Positions 14,218 to 43,052 of a stretch of 56,006 bases of DNA are shown in pieces. The notes beneath the pieces are model-generated. The model was not told where the DNA came from. It worked only from the letters and a program-made list of their open reading frames with translations, and did no database searches. The DNA comes from a virus (lineage: Duplodnaviria; Caudoviricetes). The DNA lies in the IMG/VR virus record IMGVR_UViG_3300038856_000078, positions 1 to 56,006 of that record. The stretch is one strand, 5' to 3'. The position numbers and the translations under genes were made by a program. How positions within the stretch are numbered: the stretch's first letter is position 1; every line of letters starts with the position of its first letter.

Positions 14218-14434
14218 CGGCACAGAGACGGAAGCCGAGACCCTCAAGGCTGGCCGCGTTGCGGTGCATGCGGCATTGGGCGGTGAAGGCTACGTCTTAA
14301 CTGACGTGTCCAGCCTCAAGGTCTACTGCTGGATGAAGAAAAAAGGCGAAGCCGTGAAGCTTCGCCGTAGGTTGGAAGACGCGATTGACGCGGGGGAAGA
14401 CTTAGAGGCGCTTCTTTTTACTCCATCTCCTTAA
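14192..14434 (+). CDS. Hypothetical protein, last gene of the replication operon
   Basis: GTG start after GAGGTGA; converges on the - strand operon. Confidence 0.5.
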   Translation: MKILLTFPDGTETEAETLKAGRVAVHAALGGEGYVLTDVSSLKVYCWMKKKGEAVKLRRRLEDAIDAGEDLEALLFTPSP

Positions 14435-14807
14435 TCCATTGTACGATGTGCGTAGCTAACGTCATGTAGTCCTTGGTCTGTTGTTCGGTGGGGGGATTGT
14501 CTTCATAACTTCGAATACTTTCAAGGGTATCACAGCCGCTGCATGACCCATAGTCGACCTTTACGTACCAGTAGGTCGACGGCTGGTAGCCACCAGCGGC
14601 GATGACAAATAGTAGTGTGCCCTGATAGTCGCCGTCATCGATTACGTGGATTCGTTCTGGGTCAATAGAGCAATAGTCATCCTCATCCCTGATTACTGAG
14701 ACGACGTCCTTGACAATGGCTCTGTAGTCGTTGGGGTGCTCCTTGGAATACTTGTCGCGGAGGGTTTCCTTGTTGGCTTCCCACCTTTCGACGAACTCTT
14801 GGATCAT
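14418..14807 (-). CDS. Conserved hypothetical phage protein
   Basis: DDGDYQGTLLF and YGSCSGCD motifs. Confidence 0.7.
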   Translation of the reverse strand: MIQEFVERWEANKETLRDKYSKEHPNDYRAIVKDVVSVIRDEDDYCSIDPERIHVIDDGDYQGTLLFVIAAGGYQPSTYWYVKVDYGSCSGCDTLESIRSYEDNPPTEQQTKDYMTLATHIVQWIKEME

Positions 14808-15334
14808 GAGCGCCTCCTTCGAAGACCAAGAGCCCCCAGGCCCAGGCCCAGTAGAGCGAGGCTGCCGGGCTCGGGGGTGGGGATAGTGTCACCATTAGGG
14901 CGTACAATCAGGAACTCGTCAGTGCTTGCCCACGAGTCGCGACCACCCTTCGCGAAGAAGGTGCCAAGGACGGGTGACCTGTCGGTAAGGAAGCATACAG
15001 AGCTCTCGCAATCTTCGAATTCGAATTTGACGCCGAAGATATCGCCGCCACGAGTCTGAAACCACCTCGGACCCTCGAAGCTTTCTTGGCTTCGAATCGG
15101 AATGTCGCAGTCCTGTGTCACTTCGATAATCAAATGCGACAGCGCAGGGCGCTCCGCGCTTATCGAGTAACAGTACCGCCACAGCTCTCCCTCCTGCTGG
15201 ACGTTCCACGATATGGAAAAATTGTCCCATTCGTTGGTCGTAAGCTGGTTCGCTGAAAGGGAACCCGACAGGTCGATGAATGCTGCGTTCAGATTTACGG
15301 TGACGAAAAGGAGGGGAATTAGACATCGGGACAT
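14804..15334 (-). CDS. PEP-CTERM sorting domain protein (exosortase substrate)
   Basis: N-terminal signal peptide MSRCLIPLLFVTVNLNA; C-terminus TPEPGSLALLGLGLGALGLRRRRS (PEP, TM helix, Arg cluster). Confidence 0.92.
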   Translation of the reverse strand: MSRCLIPLLFVTVNLNAAFIDLSGSLSANQLTTNEWDNFSISWNVQQEGELWRYCYSISAERPALSHLIIEVTQDCDIPIRSQESFEGPRWFQTRGGDIFGVKFEFEDCESSVCFLTDRSPVLGTFFAKGGRDSWASTDEFLIVRPNGDTIPTPEPGSLALLGLGLGALGLRRRRS

Positions 15335-15666
15335 GTTAAACCTTCTTCTTCTGCAAGGGTTTCGAGTTCGGATTTCCATTTAGCAGGGGTGCTGGTGTGG
15401 TCGTCGTGAATATCTTGTAGTGTAGAGAGGAATACTTCGTTTCCCAACTTCTTCTTGATGTCTGGGTATTTCCAAAAAAGCATCTCTACCCCTCCTCGGA
15501 ACTTCTGTCCGGGGTGCCCGTCGGGAATCAAGCAGCCCACGGCACACTTTCGGCCTTCCGAATCGAGGTAACTACAGGCTCCGTATTTCTCGTCGTATGC
15601 TCTCTCCTTCTGAGTCAAGAGGTGCTTGTAGACGCGGTTAAAGATACGCTGTTTCGACATTCCCAT
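15319..15666 (-). CDS. Hypothetical protein, paralog of 27969..28325
   Basis: IF....HLL.Q, C.Y, CAVGCLI and LQDIHD motifs shared with the paralog. Confidence 0.75.
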   Translation of the reverse strand: MGMSKQRIFNRVYKHLLTQKERAYDEKYGACSYLDSEGRKCAVGCLIPDGHPGQKFRGGVEMLFWKYPDIKKKLGNEVFLSTLQDIHDDHTSTPAKWKSELETLAEEEGLTCPDV

Positions 15667-17411
15667 TACGGCATCTCCCAGTTGCCCGGCTCGACCGTCG
15701 TGGTGCCGTCGGCGAAGCGATATCCTCGGTGAAATCCGTCTCCACTACGTCCGTCCCACTTGGCAGCCTGGCGGATAACCTGAGCCTTCCGCTGCTCGAA
15801 ATCCTCGCCGCCGCACTTGGGGCAAATGGCGGGAGGAATATTGGCTCCTGCTCCTCCGACATCGACCTTAGGGACGACGGCCGAGCAGTCCTTGCAGCTC
15901 GTCACGCGGGTCCAGTCGCCGAGCTCGAGCTGAGTGGGCGCGGTGTACCAGTCCTTGGCACCCTGCCAAATGTCGGTGGGGTTCGAGAGGGCGGAGAACA
16001 GGACGAACAGCGCGGCATACTTACCGAAAACCTTGGACTTAGACATAAAAGCTCCTTTCGTTACGTACGGGGCGTCACCAATACTTGTAATATAAGAAGG
16101 GTCGTCTTGTTTATGGCATTTTCCATTGCCGTCGTTGACCCACCAAACTCCTTTGTACTCCTTTGCTTCTGGATGTCTGAATACTGCTCCTACCGGCAAA
16201 TCTTTTGGTGACATTGGGGTCTCCTTCTGGGGGGTGTTAGAAAGTATTTCAATATCCATTCCGGGTTTAATACTACATTCAGCAGCGTTTACTCCATCTT
16301 CTCTTTCACCTTCTGTCCCACAGGCTTTTACTCTCCATACAATATCCGAACCACGATCTCTATCACCCCAGTATTCGGGCATTGTCAAGAAGCGAAACCG
16401 GTCGCCCGGTTTGAGTTTGGGCATGGGGGGCTCCTTTTGAGTTGGGGTTTCAGAATCAAGAATTTCGTAGGTGCAGCCCTCGACGGGCCAGAGAAAACCC
16501 GCCTGGCTTTCGTACCGGGCTTTCCCTTCTTCTCCCATAACAAATGGGATATCAAGACATGTGGGTCTAACACCGTAATCCTCGGGAAAAGTCAAAAAGC
16601 GAAACCGGTCGCCCGGTTTGAGTTTGGGCATGGAGTATTTCCGCCCCGGCTCGTAGTCCTGGCCGGTGGCAGCGCGGAAAGCTTGGCGTACATCCTGTGC
16701 AGTCTGCCAATGATCCATACGAGACTTGATAAGCTCCTGAATGCGCTTTTCTGCGGCTTCTCCTGATTTCTCCGCCTCTTGTCGTGCCTCAACCTCCTTC
16801 TTCCACTGCTTGCAGTTATAATTCAAGTCATGAAGCCTATCTGTGGCAACTGTCTGGAGACGCACAACGTCCTGCTCGGCCTTCTCGCGGGCGGCGCGTT
16901 CGGTGGCGAGCTGCTCTTTCCAAGCAAGCGCTGTCTTAATCGTAACGTCGCAAGTGTCCTGTCCCGCCCCTCCTGTGGCGTGTCTCTGGGCAAAGTCCTG
17001 AAGCTTATCCGCCCACTCTGAGTTGATCTTGAGGAGCCATTTTTGGGTTTCAGATAACCCTTCCTCGGGAGGACGCTCGACAATATACTTCTCGAGACTA
17101 TCGGTGTGGTCGTTGAACCAGTCAGGACTGGAATACGACCACCCTCGAATACCACAGGTTCCCCAGTACAAATAGTGCTTCTCTGGGTCATAGTACTTGG
17201 GCAGCTTGTACCTGTAGTCCCACTCCGTCGCGTCGAGTTCTGAGGGCGGGAGGCGTCCTATGATTGGGAAGCGCCTAAGCCTCGCAGGACCAATTTTGTC
17301 TCCTGGGTTTCGGAATTCCCTCCAGTGTTTTTCGTCTACTACAACAAAAGGGTCAAAATCCTTCACGTTCTGATGTCTGTTGCGAATGGTCCCCGGTGCG
17401 AGTTCTTTCAT
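15666..17411 (-). CDS. Modular hypothetical protein (repeated modules, coiled coil, TM plus CxxC-CxxC C-terminal module)
   Basis: 581 aa; MPKLKPGDRFRFLT occurs twice; shares N- and C-terminal modules with 20010..21350. Confidence 0.75.
   Translation of the reverse strand: MKELAPGTIRNRHQNVKDFDPFVVVDEKHWREFRNPGDKIGPARLRRFPIIGRLPPSELDATEWDYRYKLPKYYDPEKHYLYWGTCGIRGWSYSSPDWFNDHTDSLEKYIVERPPEEGLSETQKWLLKINSEWADKLQDFAQRHATGGAGQDTCDVTIKTALAWKEQLATERAAREKAEQDVVRLQTVATDRLHDLNYNCKQWKKEVEARQEAEKSGEAAEKRIQELIKSRMDHWQTAQDVRQAFRAATGQDYEPGRKYSMPKLKPGDRFRFLTFPEDYGVRPTCLDIPFVMGEEGKARYESQAGFLWPVEGCTYEILDSETPTQKEPPMPKLKPGDRFRFLTMPEYWGDRDRGSDIVWRVKACGTEGEREDGVNAAECSIKPGMDIEILSNTPQKETPMSPKDLPVGAVFRHPEAKEYKGVWWVNDGNGKCHKQDDPSYITSIGDAPYVTKGAFMSKSKVFGKYAALFVLFSALSNPTDIWQGAKDWYTAPTQLELGDWTRVTSCKDCSAVVPKVDVGGAGANIPPAICPKCGGEDFEQRKAQVIRQAAKWDGRSGDGFHRGYRFADGTTTVEPGNWEMP
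16384..16633. repeat. 43 bp direct repeat (16384-16426 and 16591-16633, 1 mismatch)
   Basis: gtcaa(g/a)aagcgaaaccggtcgcccggtttgagtttgggcatgg seen twice. Confidence 0.9.
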
Positions 17412-18205
17412 TTCTCAATAAATCCTTTCTTGGAGTACCCCAGGCGCTCGGCCCAGGCTTTGAGGGGTGGAATCATTGCATCCCATGTTAGCACGTCAGG
17501 TCCCTTGTGTTTAGTCTTATTCCTGTGTGCTTTGCGGGCCGAGGAAAGGCCAGCAGGGCTAATCCCCCGCTTCCCGAAGTAGTCCAGCACCTTCATCTGG
17601 TCCGCGAGGCTCTCGATTCGCCACACTATCTCAGGTTTCATGACCGTCATGTTGAGCTCAAACTGCGTCAAGACGTCGCGCTGCAGGCCCAGTATTTCGT
17701 CAGGTCGGCGGTCCGGGGCTTTGGCGAAATAGTACCGAGAATTTACAAGGTCGACCGGGTGCCGCACAACTGTCAGGTAGCGAACCGGTGTTCCCTTTAT
17801 CGAGGAGAGCCACGGCGGCAAGCCTCCAGATACCTCAACGTCGTACTGAGTCCCAATCATGGAGCCGAAGTAGAAAATCCCGTCATAGGAGAAAACCTGC
17901 TCATGCCCAGCTCGAACGCCGCACTTCTTAAGGAAGTTAGTTGCATATGACGTGCCACCTTTATACAGACCAGAAACAAGCGTCACATACTCCGAGAGAT
18001 AGGATAGGACATTACTCCAAGTCTGGATTCGACGGTTGTCTGATATAGCTCGAAGCTTCAAGACGAGCTCTTTCGCAACCTCGAACTTCTCATCTGAGAT
18101 AGGTGGAGGGTTAGGGTTCTGCTCCGATTCAATCGTGAACGAATACCTTACGAAGTCCACGATTTCGGGGTCAGAACCCATGTCAACGCGGAAGACGTGA
18201 CTCAT
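17408..18205 (-). CDS. Sulfotransferase-fold (P-loop) protein
   Basis: VSGLYKGGTSY (5'-PSB-like), GHEQVF, VVRHPVDLVNS (3'-PB-like), WRIE. Confidence 0.7.
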   Translation of the reverse strand: MSHVFRVDMGSDPEIVDFVRYSFTIESEQNPNPPPISDEKFEVAKELVLKLRAISDNRRIQTWSNVLSYLSEYVTLVSGLYKGGTSYATNFLKKCGVRAGHEQVFSYDGIFYFGSMIGTQYDVEVSGGLPPWLSSIKGTPVRYLTVVRHPVDLVNSRYYFAKAPDRRPDEILGLQRDVLTQFELNMTVMKPEIVWRIESLADQMKVLDYFGKRGISPAGLSSARKAHRNKTKHKGPDVLTWDAMIPPLKAWAERLGYSKKGFIEK

Positions 18206-18713: not shown

Positions 18714-18886
18714 AGTCCTCAATCTCGTGCTGCCTAACCTTTAAAAGGGAAGATCATTGAGCCAAGCCACCCAATAACGAGTGCAACAAACGCCCATGGT
18801 AATGTGATAAGAATTGGTATAACAACAAGAGCGAGAACGACCGCTGACGACCCAGCATAGAATTTTGTGATAGACTTTATCATATA

Positions 18887-19582
18887 CTAACTCCTTTCAA
18901 GTATTTCTGGCCTTTGTCTGTACTCTTCCGCCACCTGCGTCATGAACACAGGCATAAACTCAATGATATGCTCTCGCTTTGTCCCGGCTTTGAGCGCGAT
19001 GTCTACAAGCTGCCCGGCTCGTAGCCAGATCTCGTCTTTATCCGGGAGCTCGTGTTTCTTGAGGCCAGCGGAGATTTGTGACCTTACATCACTTAGGAAT
19101 GCTTGATACTGTGCTTCAGATTGTGCTCGCTCTGTATAGCTCTCCTGTGTTGTTTGGGGTCCAATCACCTTTGCGGGCGTAGCTTCAGATAATCGCTCTG
19201 CAACTCTGTGAGCCCAAGGCGACGAAAGCAGGAAAGCAAGTAACAAAATTATCAATAAAATCCCAAGCACAAAACCCCAACCGTCATCATCATGTTTCTT
19301 GTTGTAAACATTCCACTTTTTTTGGTCTTGCGCCATGCTGGTGCTGTGTGCTTCCATTCTACACACATTCGTTTTAGCGCTACGAAGGGCGGACCGTGCG
19401 TTACAAAGCGCATGGAATCTTTGATTCACCCTTTCCTCAAGGAGCTGCTCAGCAGAGGTCCCTTCTCCAGTCAATAGCCACCCCTTGCTGCCATTAGGCA
19501 TTGGCGCGTATACTTGGACGTTCCATCCTCTTTCCGTGAGGTCCACTATCTCCTGTTTCTTGTTTGTCCAATACGTATTCAT
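18887..19582 (-). CDS. Hypothetical membrane protein
   Basis: SD AGGAG before ATG; one central TM helix. Confidence 0.6.
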   Translation of the reverse strand: MNTYWTNKKQEIVDLTERGWNVQVYAPMPNGSKGWLLTGEGTSAEQLLEERVNQRFHALCNARSALRSAKTNVCRMEAHSTSMAQDQKKWNVYNKKHDDDGWGFVLGILLIILLLAFLLSSPWAHRVAERLSEATPAKVIGPQTTQESYTERAQSEAQYQAFLSDVRSQISAGLKKHELPDKDEIWLRAGQLVDIALKAGTKREHIIEFMPVFMTQVAEEYRQRPEILERS

Positions 19583-20009: not shown

Positions 20010-21350
20010 TTAGTCCTCCTCCAGCACGAGTCGAGTACTGCCGTCCTCGTTGCGGAACTGGGTGCCGACCACGATGTCTGACAGCGGCCAGCCGCGGTTG
20101 CGGTAGAGAGGTGCCGCGACTCGCTTCTCAATATTCTCGGAGCCGCACTTGGGGCAAATGACCGAGTTCTCGTGCTCCATGAGTGTCTCACACTCGCCGC
20201 AGACCTTGGTCTTCTGGTAGTCGCCGTGGACCACTTCCCGCGAGCCCTTGAAGTAATCGACCGACGAGACGTACATGTCATTCAGCGGCAGGTGGCTAAA
20301 CAACGCTCCAGCAGCAACGAGGATAATCGTCTTCTTCATAAAACCAATTCCTTTCTTTTGAGGCTCCATGTTATACCAATCGACACCATAACACTTTTTT
20401 ACGTCTTCACAAACGTTGTCAAATAAATTCTTCCATTCGTTTCGCGTGTCTCGTGTCTTGTCTCTCTCCTTCTTAACCTCGGCCAATTCGTCCTGGTACC
20501 TGAGAATCTCCTCGTGAGGAGGCTGTAACCTGTTAATCAAGCTAAGTATGTCGTTACTATTATCCTCCATTCCATTCTTGCGGGCTGACCACCTGTAGTC
20601 CCCACTCTTCTGGACTATATCCCAACCGTTTACCTTGCAAATATGCCGGGCGTCTGCCTCTGCCTTGAAACTCACAGTTTTGTTCTCCATATCAACTTCC
20701 GAAACATAGGCCCATGGCTCCTCCGTGTAAATCTTGTCTCCTCGTGTAACCTCTACGCAAGCATTAATAGGCTCGTACTCCGTCGCCGTGTAGAGCTGGT
20801 CCAGAGGCACGCGGCCGAGGACTTCGATGTCGTCAGTTTCCTCTACCCACACCGCGGAAAGGTACGTTTCTCGACACTCGCAGAGAGCTTTGATGTAACG
20901 CTTCTTTTCACCCACAACACAGACAACAAGAGGTACACCAACGTCTACCTCCCAATACGGTCTCCGAATGTCGGCATGACGCGCTGGCCACGAACGAAAC
21001 GCCACGACCATTCCGGGGGTGAGGGGAGTACGAGAAGGCTTGTGACGAGGGTCTTCCCCATACATTGTTCTTGAAGCAAAAACCCATTTTGTTCCTTCCC
21101 ACCTGACGTCGAAAAATGCAGGGTCGTCGAGATACGCCTGAGGCAACTTATAGCACTCCTTCCACTCCTTCGCGTCGAGTTGGTCAGGGGGCAGGCGACC
21201 GATAACTTTCTTAGGCTTACACCCATCCCATTGCTTAGGTGGGATTCCTCCATATGTTCCGTTTGAATTCAGACTTATCGCGTTACCATTGGGTAGTATT
21301 ACCCACTTTGTGTCACCTGTTCCAGTGTAAATAGTCCCCGGCTCAAGCAT
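20010..21350 (-). CDS. Modular hypothetical protein, paralog of 15666..17411
   Basis: SD AAGGAG before ATG 21350; IGRLPP..LDA.EW...YKLP motif; C-terminal hydrophobic segment plus CGEC/CPKC module. Confidence 0.75.
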   Translation of the reverse strand: MLEPGTIYTGTGDTKWVILPNGNAISLNSNGTYGGIPPKQWDGCKPKKVIGRLPPDQLDAKEWKECYKLPQAYLDDPAFFDVRWEGTKWVFASRTMYGEDPRHKPSRTPLTPGMVVAFRSWPARHADIRRPYWEVDVGVPLVVCVVGEKKRYIKALCECRETYLSAVWVEETDDIEVLGRVPLDQLYTATEYEPINACVEVTRGDKIYTEEPWAYVSEVDMENKTVSFKAEADARHICKVNGWDIVQKSGDYRWSARKNGMEDNSNDILSLINRLQPPHEEILRYQDELAEVKKERDKTRDTRNEWKNLFDNVCEDVKKCYGVDWYNMEPQKKGIGFMKKTIILVAAGALFSHLPLNDMYVSSVDYFKGSREVVHGDYQKTKVCGECETLMEHENSVICPKCGSENIEKRVAAPLYRNRGWPLSDIVVGTQFRNEDGSTRLVLEED

Positions 21351-21384: not shown

Positions 21385-21412
21385 ATTGTAGCACTCACGC
21401 CCAGCAAGTCAA
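21385..21412 (-). promoter_or_regulatory. Sigma70-type promoter for the leftward accessory operon
   Basis: TTGACT-16nt-TACAAT with extended TG. Confidence 0.65.
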
Positions 21413-21415
21413 GCA

Positions 21416-21444
21416 TTGATTTTAGGGGGAAGGAGTGGTATAAT
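21416..21444 (+). promoter_or_regulatory. Sigma70-type promoter for primase
   Basis: TTGATT-17nt-TATAAT with extended TG; SD AGGAGG downstream. Confidence 0.75.
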
Positions 21445-24560: not shown

Positions 24561-25022
24561 ATGGCTCCTAAGAAAATAGTTTACGCGGGTGAAATTAACA
24601 GCGCGCTGGTCGAGCGCGTGTGGAAAGGCAATTGGTCCGAGCTGATTCTGTGCTCGGACGGGGGGTGTACTTACTGCATGAGGGCTATTTGTGACTACCT
24701 CCTGGACAAGGAGAAGAAGGTTGTAGGGGTCGGGCAAATCATGTCGTCTGCGACGGCTATCCTTGCGTGCGGTACGCCTGCTCTGTGCTCGCCCAACTGT
24801 CGGTTCCTTGTTCATGCTTCTGACCTTTCGGAGGCGAGCGGCGGGATTCAAGAGATGCGGAACAATGCCGAGGAGTTGAAGGTTGAGGAGGCCTGGTACT
24901 TAGACGTCATGATGGCTCGGACGAAGTTGTCGCGTGAAGCGTGGGTTGACTTGATTCGTGAGGAGACTGTGTTTGGGGCGGCTATGGCGAAGTCGATTGG
25001 GTTGGTTGATTCAATTCTGTAG
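24561..25022 (+). CDS. ClpP-like serine protease (S14)
   Basis: GEI, CSDGG, G.IMSSATAILACG (Ser), FLVH (His), A.SIGLVDSI. Confidence 0.85.
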   Translation: MAPKKIVYAGEINSALVERVWKGNWSELILCSDGGCTYCMRAICDYLLDKEKKVVGVGQIMSSATAILACGTPALCSPNCRFLVHASDLSEASGGIQEMRNNAEELKVEEAWYLDVMMARTKLSREAWVDLIREETVFGAAMAKSIGLVDSIL

Positions 25023-25114
25023 GCTTAGCGTCCTGGTGTTCTTCACACACTGTGTACCCAAACCTCGGTTCTATCTGATTGTTTTTATACTGACCGCATA
25101 CACAACACGGTTTT

Positions 25115-25351
25115 TCACTTGGATGACCTATCATGCTTTCTCCAATTCCAAATCGTCAAAACGTTCAACACCCCGAGCACACACGACAGGCCCAGCAAGC
25201 TCCAATTCTCGAGGGCCACGGACTGATAGAGATAGGCGGCATTGCCCAAGAAGTTGGCCACGGCGTAGTGGATTGGTTTGCGGCGGGCCATGGACGCCGC
25301 GCCGTATATGAAGCAGAAATTTCCACACCATCCTACGGACTGGGCTATCAC
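25115..25351 (-). CDS. Small 3-TM membrane protein (PnuC/SemiSWEET-like topology)
   Basis: GW.GN..FI.G, ANFLGNAAYLY, third TM ending WNWRK. Confidence 0.55.
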   Translation of the reverse strand: MIAQSVGWCGNFCFIYGAASMARRKPIHYAVANFLGNAAYLYQSVALENWSLLGLSCVLGVLNVLTIWNWRKHDRSSK

Positions 25352-40882: not shown

Positions 40883-41323
40883 ATGGGAACATACGTTATT
40901 CCTCCTGCTGATCTTGGCATTGACGACGTAAGTCTTAAGGTCACGACCAGCAACACGTCGAACATCTTTGACGTGAGCAGGGCTTATACTTTCACTGCAA
41001 TTGTTGACATCACAGAAACCGGAACTCCGGCAGCAGGAGCAGCGTCTCTTGTTGCAAACGTCATGGACGGGATTGGCTCGAGTGCCTCAATCATCTACTC
41101 CGTAGACCTTCTCACTGGAATCGACATTCAGACTAACGGAGACCAGAACGTCGTTACGTTTGGGGCAGGAGTTAACGGCGCGAAGACTGGAAGCGGCACA
41201 ATTGGCACAGCAATCGACGTGCTAAAGGCGGTTGAGTTCTTGCAGCTCGACCTAATTGCCACCACTGCAAGCGATGGTACTACGTGTACGGGAGACGTCA
41301 CTCTAATCGTTGAGCAACTCTAA
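40883..41323 (+). CDS. Virion protein (decoration-like)
   Basis: Thr/Gly-rich beta protein immediately after MCP. Confidence 0.6.
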   Translation: MGTYVIPPADLGIDDVSLKVTTSNTSNIFDVSRAYTFTAIVDITETGTPAAGAASLVANVMDGIGSSASIIYSVDLLTGIDIQTNGDQNVVTFGAGVNGAKTGSGTIGTAIDVLKAVEFLQLDLIATTASDGTTCTGDVTLIVEQL

Positions 41324-42600
41324 TGGGCACAGACCGAAAACTCTTCGACCAAGGTACTGTCCAGTTCTTCGAAGCTACGGCTAACGGGGTCAATAAGGCG
41401 ACAGTCCAGGCCCCAGCTACGCTTGCTGCGGACTACACGCTTACTCTGCCGGTTGACGACGGCGGCGCTAACGAGTTTCTCAAGACAGATGGCTCTGGTG
41501 TGCTCTCTTGGGGCACGAGTACCGCAACCCTTGATTCGGCATATGATAATGGTAGCACAATCACTGCGGATGCTGGTCAAGTAGAGATAAACGGTAATGG
41601 CAACGTTGGGCTGTTCCTAAATCAGGATTCAGACCATGCTGCGTTATCTGTTGACTCTGAAGCTACCGGCTCTCCACTATTATTGCTGGCCGCAATCAAT
41701 GGCAATTCTCGAGGAGATATCGCACTTGGCACTGCTCGTACCGGAGACCCGTCATCTCCCAGTGAGGGTGACATTTGGTACAACTCGACTGATAAGAACC
41801 TCTATGTTCGTACCGACGCAGCGAGTATAGACCTTACTCAGCAAAATACAGATACTCAGAATGATCTGGATGGCGCGTATACGGATGGACAGTCTATCAC
41901 GGTAGATTCCGGAGCCATTGCCATCTCTGGTAGTGCGACTTCTTTGATGGACCTCACGCAATCAGGCGACTTTGCAGGCGCAACGATTACAAAAACAGGT
42001 GTAGGAGCCGGTCGTGTTTTATCTATTGAAGATGACGGTACAGGTGGAGCAGCATTCCTGAACCAAGATGGGAACGCTATCGCCTTGGAGATTGACTCCG
42101 AGGCTACAGGGCAACCTTTACTCAGCCTATCTGCAGCAGCGGCAAACTCACGCGGCGATATTACTTTCGGAACTGCTCGACTTAATCCGGCTTCTTCTCC
42201 TGTTGAGTCTGACATTTGGTATGACGGAAGTGAGCACCGTTGGGAAGGGTATACCGGATCAGGCAACTACACATTGGGTGGTGCTTTTAATATGACACCT
42301 GGCCCGGGTACTGCTATTCAATTATCTTCTGGAGTCTTAACACTTACGCAATCTTATTGTTTTGTAACCTCTGAATCTGGTGCTACGGATGACTTAGATA
42401 CAATCACTGCAGCAGACTCTAACACAGGAGATATTATTGTGTTGCGTCCCACAAGTGGGGATACGATTACAGTTAAGCATGGCACGGGCAATATTACACT
42501 TTCTGGAGGTGCAGATCGAGTTTTAACGCCTGCCAACGGTAGTAGTATCATGCTTCAGAATACGGGTGGTAATTGGAATGAGGTTTCGTATACAGCATGA
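41323..42600 (+). CDS. Fiber-like virion protein with internal duplication
   Basis: YTLTLP.DDG....LKTDGSGVLSW fiber motif; duplicated LD.AY...NQD...DSEATG...NSRGDI..GTAR...DIWY block. Confidence 0.7.
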   Translation: MGTDRKLFDQGTVQFFEATANGVNKATVQAPATLAADYTLTLPVDDGGANEFLKTDGSGVLSWGTSTATLDSAYDNGSTITADAGQVEINGNGNVGLFLNQDSDHAALSVDSEATGSPLLLLAAINGNSRGDIALGTARTGDPSSPSEGDIWYNSTDKNLYVRTDAASIDLTQQNTDTQNDLDGAYTDGQSITVDSGAIAISGSATSLMDLTQSGDFAGATITKTGVGAGRVLSIEDDGTGGAAFLNQDGNAIALEIDSEATGQPLLSLSAAAANSRGDITFGTARLNPASSPVESDIWYDGSEHRWEGYTGSGNYTLGGAFNMTPGPGTAIQLSSGVLTLTQSYCFVTSESGATDDLDTITAADSNTGDIIVLRPTSGDTITVKHGTGNITLSGGADRVLTPANGSSIMLQNTGGNWNEVSYTA

Positions 42601-43052
42601 GCACTTCAAAAACACTCCACGCTGACACAGTACTGGTTCCTGAGACGGACGAGGTTGATTGGGGAGCGGAGGTTTCTGCGTTCCTTGCTACGCTGATTGA
42701 AGACGCGGACGCCTCGACTTTTCAGGATGCAGACGGAAACGTCTTCAACCGAATCCAGTGGACCACGGCGACGATTGCAGACGGCGGGGAGCTTACCCCA
42801 GCAACTACGGGCTACCGTCTCGCAGGAGACGGAGGCGCGGCGACTCTTGATGGGACGACCGCGATTACGGACGGGGAGAAGGACGGCCAGATTCTCATCA
42901 TCAAGGGGACCAGCGACACCAACACCGTGACTATAGACACCGGAGCGAACACCGACCTAAATGGGCAGATTGTCCTTGACGACGGTGGAATGATTCACCT
43001 CGTGTGGGATTCAACGAGCTCTGCGTGGGTTGAAATTAACAGGAATTCATAA
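42597..43052 (+). CDS. Virion structural protein
   Basis: Acidic, Thr/Gly-rich; C-terminal domain resembles that of the preceding gene. Confidence 0.6.
   Translation: MSTSKTLHADTVLVPETDEVDWGAEVSAFLATLIEDADASTFQDADGNVFNRIQWTTATIADGGELTPATTGYRLAGDGGAATLDGTTAITDGEKDGQILIIKGTSDTNTVTIDTGANTDLNGQIVLDDGGMIHLVWDSTSSAWVEINRNS

Follow-up and report, generated by a model that had tools for sequence, protein, structure and literature searches.

Nested proteins that share a C-terminus and are translated from one frame are known in bacteria and phages, in which they have usually been found singly and by experiment. The lambda C/Nu3 and P22 sieB/esc pairs are examples of such nested phage products, the esc product counteracting the longer membrane protein SieB, and neither pair is homologous to the gene described here. 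One paper that was searched names sieB as a P22 exclusion gene and does not mention esc. In Escherichia coli, 3'-proximal in-frame internal starts have been located at domain boundaries, including that of ArcB-C with its conserved Shine-Dalgarno (SD) sequence, and a further internal-start product, RpnE-C, has the stand-alone homolog ypaA; the known internal starts that affect signal sequences, those of speA, bamA, ivy and yghG, remove them (Meydan et al., 10.1101/520783). Among phages, lysA of mycobacteriophage Ms6 gives products of 384 and 241 residues (Lysin384 and Lysin241), both of which are needed (cited in PMC3314691), and in the dual-start holins lambda S107/S105, SPP1 gp24.1/gp24.1* and gp26/gp26* each start has its own ribosome-binding site (RBS; PMC6316719). 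Here, we describe P0001, a gene at positions 15666..17411 (minus strand) of the virus record IMGVR_UViG_3300038856_000078, which was analysed over its whole stretch of 56,006 bases (hereafter, the window). We hold with moderate confidence that this gene yields at least two C-coterminal products, most likely a long form of 581 amino acids (aa) and a short form of 126 aa that would start at position 16046.

P0001 is a single open reading frame (ORF) of 581 aa, which runs uninterrupted from 17411 to 15666 and contains ten in-frame ATG codons. Its first ATG shares the sequence ATGA with the stop codon of the upstream gene, and its own stop codon shares TAATG with the ATG of the next gene. A preliminary description of the window had reported three in-frame SD-preceded ATG codons with no intervening stop, a weaker start at 16631 that opens a duplicated module, and a C-terminal module combining a transmembrane (TM) segment with two CxxC motifs; when the window was re-read, the coordinates and sequences of all these elements proved accurate. 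The ATG at 16424 (residue 330) follows AAGGAG at 16431-16436 with a spacer of 6 nucleotides (nt), and that at 16214 (residue 400) follows AAGGAG at 16221-16226 with the same spacing. The candidate initiation signal closest to the 3' end (16044..16057, minus strand) consists of AAGGAG at 16052-16057, a spacer of 5 nt and the ATG at 16044-16046, which encodes Met456, its SD being encoded by K452-G453-A454. The annotated start at 17411, which is preceded by AGGA only, 11 nt upstream of the ATG, is weaker than all three internal sites, and the ATG at 16631 (residue 261) has no SD-like core. A promoter-like site that might serve as an internal promoter of the short form was looked for inside the ORF, and none was found.

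In the model that we propose, the long form would be translated from 17411 with its weak SD, probably by translational coupling to the upstream gene. Such a protein would be bitopic, with approximately 455 aa in the cytoplasm (a beta domain, a coiled coil and three small beta modules), one short hydrophobic segment and, across the inner membrane, a zinc-ribbon/beta domain of some 100 aa. Ribosomes would also load at the much stronger 16046 site to make the 126-aa form, in which the hydrophobic segment, now N-terminal, would act as a Sec-type signal or as a signal anchor. The short form would deliver the zinc-ribbon domain without the cytoplasmic part, such that tethered and untethered versions would coexist, and it may act as a free partner, as a competitor, or as the bulk subunit, with a few long forms linking it to the cytoplasm. 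The sites at 16424 and 16214 would have come with module duplication or recombination and would travel with a linker-module cassette. We infer initiation at the internal sites, the topology, the export or cleavage of the short form, and the interplay of the forms. If the model is correct, one frame gives two copies of the zinc-ribbon domain, one tethered to the cytoplasm and one free and exported, by an internal start that would change the destination of a domain and that appears, by comparative sequence alone, to be kept across an uncharacterised phage family. As gene callers report one of the two forms, such cases would be invisible in annotation. A bolder scheme, in which an internal RBS turns an anchor into an export signal and successive cassettes, each bringing its own SD and ATG, add rungs to a ladder of products, appears improbable to us.

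P0001 resembles ArcB/ArcB-C in being a membrane-protein gene with an SD-preceded start at a 3' domain boundary that is kept in orthologs and would provide the C-terminal domain separately. However, ArcB-C is released into the cytosol, whereas the short form of P0001 would keep its hydrophobic segment as a signal or anchor; the two proteins show no homology, and the short form of P0001 is a prediction from sequence. In contrast to the internal starts of speA, bamA, ivy and yghG, that of P0001 would create an N-terminal signal. The parallel with RpnE-C and YpaA, to which P0001 is unrelated, is that an internal product has a counterpart encoded separately, a situation that may also hold for three of the relatives introduced below (P0012, P0016 and P0017). 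Ms6 LysA likewise pairs a full-length protein with a much shorter C-coterminal one from an internal start, although LysA is a soluble lysis enzyme and P0001 a predicted membrane/zinc-ribbon protein in an early-type operon. The dual-start holins share with P0001 that they are phage membrane proteins with two in-frame starts, whose forms differ in the behaviour of the first membrane segment; the holins, however, are small proteins of lysis cassettes, in which the two starts are separated by 2-9 codons at the N-terminus. The possibility that P0001 is itself such a holin was rejected, since its two starts are separated by 455 codons and the seven operon neighbours scanned matched no Pfam family, endolysins included. 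A full-text literature search, the coverage of which is incomplete, returned no phage membrane protein in which an internal start exposes a signal peptide, and this is weak evidence of novelty.

A HMMER search of 1.84 billion representatives returned 21 proteins at E <= 0.001, and a word-index protein search returned five, the query being included in both counts; the few labels given read 'hypothetical protein' only, and no functional name was returned. When the C-terminal module alone was used as a word-index query, the 'longer' search gave three proteins, again including the query, and the 'near' search gave none. In scans of metagenomes and genomes, L001 was the sole true relative, L004 and L005 matching over just 23 residues; L002 and L003, which hold a valyl-tRNA-synthetase-like ORF, and L006, a small zinc-ribbon protein, were rejected as relatives. 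Neither Pfam nor PHROGs holds a family for P0001, tblastn against the 50,697 phage records of INPHARED gave no match to it, and no relative was found in IMG/VR with the protein, two alignments or a 35-nt repeat (described below) as queries; the neighbouring primase likewise had none there. The P0001 family is rare, metagenomic and unnamed, and P0001 is a genuine single gene.

The last ~125 residues are common to nearly all 21 representatives and present, in order, a Lys-rich stretch, a short hydrophobic segment, WWxAPTxLELGDW, two CxxC knuckles and RGYxFxDGT..PGxW. The upstream parts are variable and comprise helical segments that differ widely in length, one or two copies of the motif AFRAATGxxYxPGxDYS, and between zero and four small beta modules; P0018 (200 aa), for example, is made up of one module and the C-terminal module. 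Most members also possess an N-terminal beta domain with the motif GRLPPxxLDATEW, which is repeated in tandem in P0019 and P0020. These last two proteins consist solely of two or three tandem copies of the N-domain, with a hydrophobic ..FFKKYW tail, and lack the zinc-ribbon module. A paralog with the same plan as P0001, P0022, is encoded in the same operon of the same phage (20010..21416, minus strand): it has the same N-terminal motif, followed by KKGIGF-M (ATG at 20337-20339), a hydrophobic segment and CxxC...CxxC in matching order, and its modules resemble those of P0002. Its true start is probably not the listed ATG at 21416 but that at 21350, where an AAGGAG SD precedes a sequence (MLEPGTIY) like the N-termini of the family.

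The comparison of these proteins at the boundary preceding the C-terminal module is what chiefly carries the case for site 16046. In a five-protein alignment, K452 and G453 are invariant within a linker that is otherwise unalignable, and a Met follows two to three residues on. The corresponding pattern, K[G/E]x2-3M, occurs 17 times in the 7,065 residues of 22 proteins. Fourteen of these occurrences immediately precede the hydrophobic segment and belong to 14 of the 15 proteins in which there is sequence upstream of it; of the other three, two are the window gene's own module boundaries and one is found elsewhere. Lys-Gly always encodes AAGG, and Lys-Glu often encodes AAGGAG. Even the exception, P0009 (EGTKKM), has GAAGGA 9 nt before its ATG in the DNA of L001, and the paralog P0022 has AAAGGA, also 9 nt before the ATG; an SD-like core is thus present in all three family DNAs compared, that of the window gene being AAGGAG. 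Furthermore, the Gly codon is GGA in all three, as against 269 of the 1,251 Gly codons (21.5%) in the window, which hints, in this small sample, at a constraint on the nucleotides themselves. The stand-alone relatives P0012, P0016 and P0017 begin at the equivalent Met, and P0015 is a stand-alone protein with its own, longer N-terminus. We read site 16046 as a conserved internal initiation site, with good comparative support.

What follows this Met is also shared. In all 19 proteins considered from that residue onwards, an n-region with a net charge of +1 to +6 is followed by 15-22 uncharged residues, which comprise a hydrophobic core of ~11-13 residues and then a polar stretch, often with a Ser/Asn/Pro end, and the 15 residues after the uncharged stretch have a net charge of zero or below. 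Because of this combination of a positive n-region, an uncharged stretch and a non-positive flank, the layout from Met456 reads as a Sec signal peptide or a signal anchor, with the N-terminus inside and the C-terminal domain outside. In P0001, this signal-peptide-like or membrane segment spans residues 461-479 (15975..16031), where a Lys-rich n-region precedes 15 uncharged residues and a net-negative flank. It lies within the C-terminal module (residues 456-581; 15669..16046), which is both the family core and the proposed 126-aa isoform, and which bears the putative CxxC...CxxC zinc-ribbon knuckles (C506, C509, C530 and C533; 15813..15896), all on the minus strand. The CxxC...CxxC pattern is nearly invariant in the family. 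AlphaFold2 models the C-terminal module as a helix at residues 459-476, a second helix, and a beta sheet that bears the putative zinc ribbon (mean predicted local distance difference test score, 77).

The three internal sites are rarely matched by chance. Among 50,000 versions of the ORF with shuffled codons, one contained three in-frame AAGGAG-N4-9-ATG sites and 2,608 contained one or more; the sites at 16424 and 16214 are not independent events, because the duplicated modules that precede them end in homologous linkers (TPTQKEPP-M and TPQKETP-M). The same motif occurs 19 times on both strands of the whole window. At least seven of these occurrences (38372, 40883, 52019, 49867, 14807, 10208 and 18883) fall on the first codon of an ORF. 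A further three are no more than 55 codons from a crude first-start call, and among these is 21350, the probable start of the paralog. Deep in-frame occurrences in other ORFs number only two across the window (31993 and 27009). Given this distribution, AAGGAG-N4-9-ATG is mostly a good marker of genuine starts in the present phage. The RNA around 16214 and 16046 does not fold better than shuffled sequence (z of +1.29 and +1.00, respectively).

The architecture of the long form shows where the two upstream sites lie. Its features, all encoded on the minus strand, begin with an N-terminal beta-rich domain (residues 1-95; 17127..17411) carrying the family motif GRLPPxxLDATEW..YKLP, followed by a long helical or coiled-coil region, the length of which varies in relatives (residues 121-249; 16665..17051), and by the conserved motif AFRAATGQDYEPGRKYS (residues 244-260; 16632..16682), which abuts module 1. 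Module 1 is a small beta module with the terminal linker TPTQKEPP (residues 261-329; 16425..16631), module 2 is its duplicate (residues 330-399; 16215..16424), and module 3 (residues 400-455; 16047..16214) leads to the C-terminal module; the AlphaFold2 models of modules 2 and 3 are of low confidence. In searches of a small database, modules 1 and 2 share 48.6% of residues over 72 aa (E 2.8e-11), and module 3 is weakly similar to the N-termini of P0010 (E 0.005) and P0007 (E 0.066). The first 12 codons of modules 1 and 2 contain an identical stretch of 35 nt (16597..16631 and 16390..16424). As the remainder has diverged to the level of protein identity just given, this stretch could reflect recent gene conversion or recombination at the module border, or it could be an RNA element. 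It holds a perfect 7-bp hairpin, AAACCGG-GCGA-CCGGTTT, which is followed in the first copy by a T-rich tail and was flagged as terminator-like; terminator-like sites are not in excess around the region (10, compared with 7.5 +/- 2.6 in shuffles).

The pattern K[G/E]x2-3M is absent from all three of the distant homologous modules: in P0003 the Met is missing, P0008 retains a Met but lacks the SD-type dipeptide, and in P0002 the KE is placed four residues upstream. The sites at 16424 and 16214 therefore look like lineage-specific companions of the module duplication, at which initiation may nonetheless occur, since they match genuine starts in strength. The preliminary description had proposed a nested set of C-coterminal isoforms and had made SD conservation in homologs a touchstone. 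Both ideas fare well at the boundary of the TM and CxxC module, where site 16046 is retained in 14 of 15 proteins, the exception itself having AAGGA, and in the three DNAs; neither extends to 16424 and 16214, and a conserved ladder of three sites finds no counterpart in the three modules.

Logan contigs of the sequencing run X1 tile positions 15300-17800 with 0 differences and no indels in five long pieces. X1 is probably the source sample, and its agreement means that a second assembler concurs, and no more; to that extent, the tiling speaks against the assembly errors for which a check had been called. Relatives in the other samples (X2-X4) were compared over the region apart from 15888-16391, for which there is no contig and which includes site 16046. 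Each of their joints is supported by one contig of low depth, the sides being short (32-34 nt), and is to be read with care. Net length differences of 195, 189, 195, 105, +15 and +447 nt, all multiples of 3, were observed; those of 195, 189 and 195 are skips, that of 105 is a 110-nt skip with five letters between, that of +15 is the replacement of 126 nt by 141, and that of 447 is a 425-nt repeat with 22 letters between. These mostly in-frame indels and duplications are located at module and coiled-coil boundaries, and since the length changes mostly keep the frame, they give indirect support to the long frame being translated and under selection. One X2 contig joins 16437 to 16633, a 195-nt skip which, on our reading, drops module 1 in frame and keeps the AAGGAG and ATG before module 2. 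In a relative from the same sample, the nine loose letters that lie just before a module-1-like ATG correspond, as the reverse complement, to a linker containing AGGAG. The suggestion that modules have accreted is supported, as homologs differ by whole modules and close relatives by mostly in-frame indels or duplications at boundaries, and the family is a plain example of domain accretion. The accompanying suggestion of a recent fusion by stop loss is not supported, the fused frame being common to relatives at 25-50% identity and to the paralog of the same phage.

Several observations weigh against the proposed model. The family nucleotide sequences compared number three, two of them from the window, and conservation elsewhere is deduced from residues. 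A Lys-rich flank before a membrane segment is expected from the positive-inside rule, so that the Lys signal is partly non-specific, and the stand-alone relatives P0012, P0015, P0016 and P0017 are on contigs of 599-1,159 nt and may be gene-caller choices on fragments. Zinc ribbons occur typically in cytoplasmic proteins, and a periplasmic location fits poorly with this. One of the joints in relatives is a skip of 191 nt, a length not divisible by 3, and the SD at 16424 is base-paired in the minimum-energy fold. Moreover, when loose 4-nt SD cores were counted, the observed number of three was reached in 5,635 of 50,000 shuffles, which is not unusual, so that significance is carried by the full hexamer. 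This lack of excess under a loose definition equally favours a single bitopic product of 581 aa, in which K[G/E]xxM would be kept for protein reasons (a positive-inside flank, a helix cap or a contact) and the AAGGAG of the linkers would be a by-product of their richness in Lys and Glu and of preferred AAG and GAG codons. Indeed, AAG accounts for 67% of Lys codons and GAG for 62% of Glu codons in the window, and a Lys-Glu dipeptide will hence often read AAGGAG; duplication produced the homologous linkers that hold two of the three sites, and the internal module starts are not kept in distant homologs. A single product would, however, leave unexplained why Met and Gly/Glu, which are not positive-inside residues, are kept at a fixed spacing of 2-3 codons in an unalignable linker, why GGA is used in all three DNAs, and why stand-alone relatives start at the equivalent Met; strong internal SDs are, besides, otherwise rare in the ORFs of this phage, with the two further in-frame cases mentioned above. 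We judge it an unlikely explanation, albeit one that deserves to be taken seriously.

At the other extreme, 16424, 16214 and 16046 could all be used, to give products of 252, 182 and 126 aa beside that of 581 aa, each module having brought its own RBS. All three sites do combine the complete AAGGAG with a spacer of 5-6 nt and exceed the start of the gene itself in strength, and the relatives from X2 offer the AGGAG-containing linker before a module-1-like ATG and the skip that retains AAGGAG and ATG before module 2; the weak resemblance of module 3 to the N-termini of P0010 and P0007, and the natural occurrence of one module with the C-terminal module in P0018, point the same way. Yet the three distant modules do not keep the pattern, the pairing of the SD at 16424 is unfavourable, and the joints on which the X2 evidence depends have short sides and low depth, such that use of the entire ladder seems to us decidedly unlikely. 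Least probable by far is an origin of the frame from separate small genes, through either an assembly error or a very recent loss of stop codons. An SD and ATG at each boundary do give the look of adjacent small genes, and the Logan unitigs break at the 35-nt repeat; but the X1 contigs, from an independent assembler, are free of differences and indels, the same fusion of N-domain and C-terminal module is found in the paralog and in proteins from other sources at 25-50% identity, and the length changes in relatives mostly keep the frame. We retain the reading of at least two products, from 17411 and 16046.

Pfam searches of all 21 members gave only zinc-ribbon models below threshold: HypA in 15 of the 21 (13.8 bits for P0001, compared with a cutoff of 28.9) and zf-ChsH2 in four of 21. 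A fold search of the PDB and BFVD gave no match at E <= 0.001. Below every threshold, Foldseek suggested a weak likeness to zinc-ribbon and OB-fold proteins (E 0.045-0.4; 0.3-0.4 for 6ok1_B and 7pxp_B), and the ESM Atlas returned template-modelling scores of 0.33-0.38 for DUF35, RPA and PriA rows (0.36-0.38 for those like DUF35), the feature scores of <= 0.86 being leads only. With VIA-align, the best hits of the C-terminal module (Z 4.2) were unrelated chains and included no DUF35 or ChsH2 chain, and the full model gave generic helical matches (Z <= 7.5). DUF35/ChsH2, the N-terminal domain of MCM, and RPA, to which the weak similarity recurs, combine a zinc ribbon with an OB fold; these proteins are cytoplasmic and have no membrane segment. 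Since the operon encodes other membrane or exported proteins, an envelope-directed early function would be our guess.

The podovirus-like record that contains P0001 is rated 92% complete and encodes a family A DNA polymerase, a ribonucleotide reductase, a VapE-type primase, an SNF2 helicase, a P22-like portal and an SU10-type adaptor. P0001 seems to belong to a leftward operon that extends from divergent promoter-like sites near 21400 to a terminator-like hairpin at 14366-14345. The promoter-like pair (21385-21444) lies between the paralog and the primase gene, each member having 10 of 12 matches and a TG extension, and the hairpin (14345-14366), at the end of the operon, is strong and has a T6 tail. 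Besides P0001 and P0022, the operon encodes two small membrane proteins, an MT-A70 methylase, a PEP-CTERM protein and proteins without an assigned function. One of the membrane proteins (18734-18883, minus strand) has 49 aa, two hydrophobic segments and an AAGGAG start of its own; the other (18887-19582, minus strand) has 231 aa and one central hydrophobic segment. The protein with the PEP-CTERM sorting motif (14804-15379, minus strand; Pfam E 3.8e-06) suggests a host with an exosortase system.

Elsewhere in the window, a 153-aa ORF on the plus strand (24561-25019) matches the C-terminal two thirds of a Clp protease profile and overlaps the ORF at 24958-25308 on the same strand; it may represent a short or split protease gene. 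Finally, two adjacent plus-strand genes, at 41323-42597 (425 aa) and 42597-43049 (151 aa), both end in the depolymerase C-terminal beta-sandwich PF25692.

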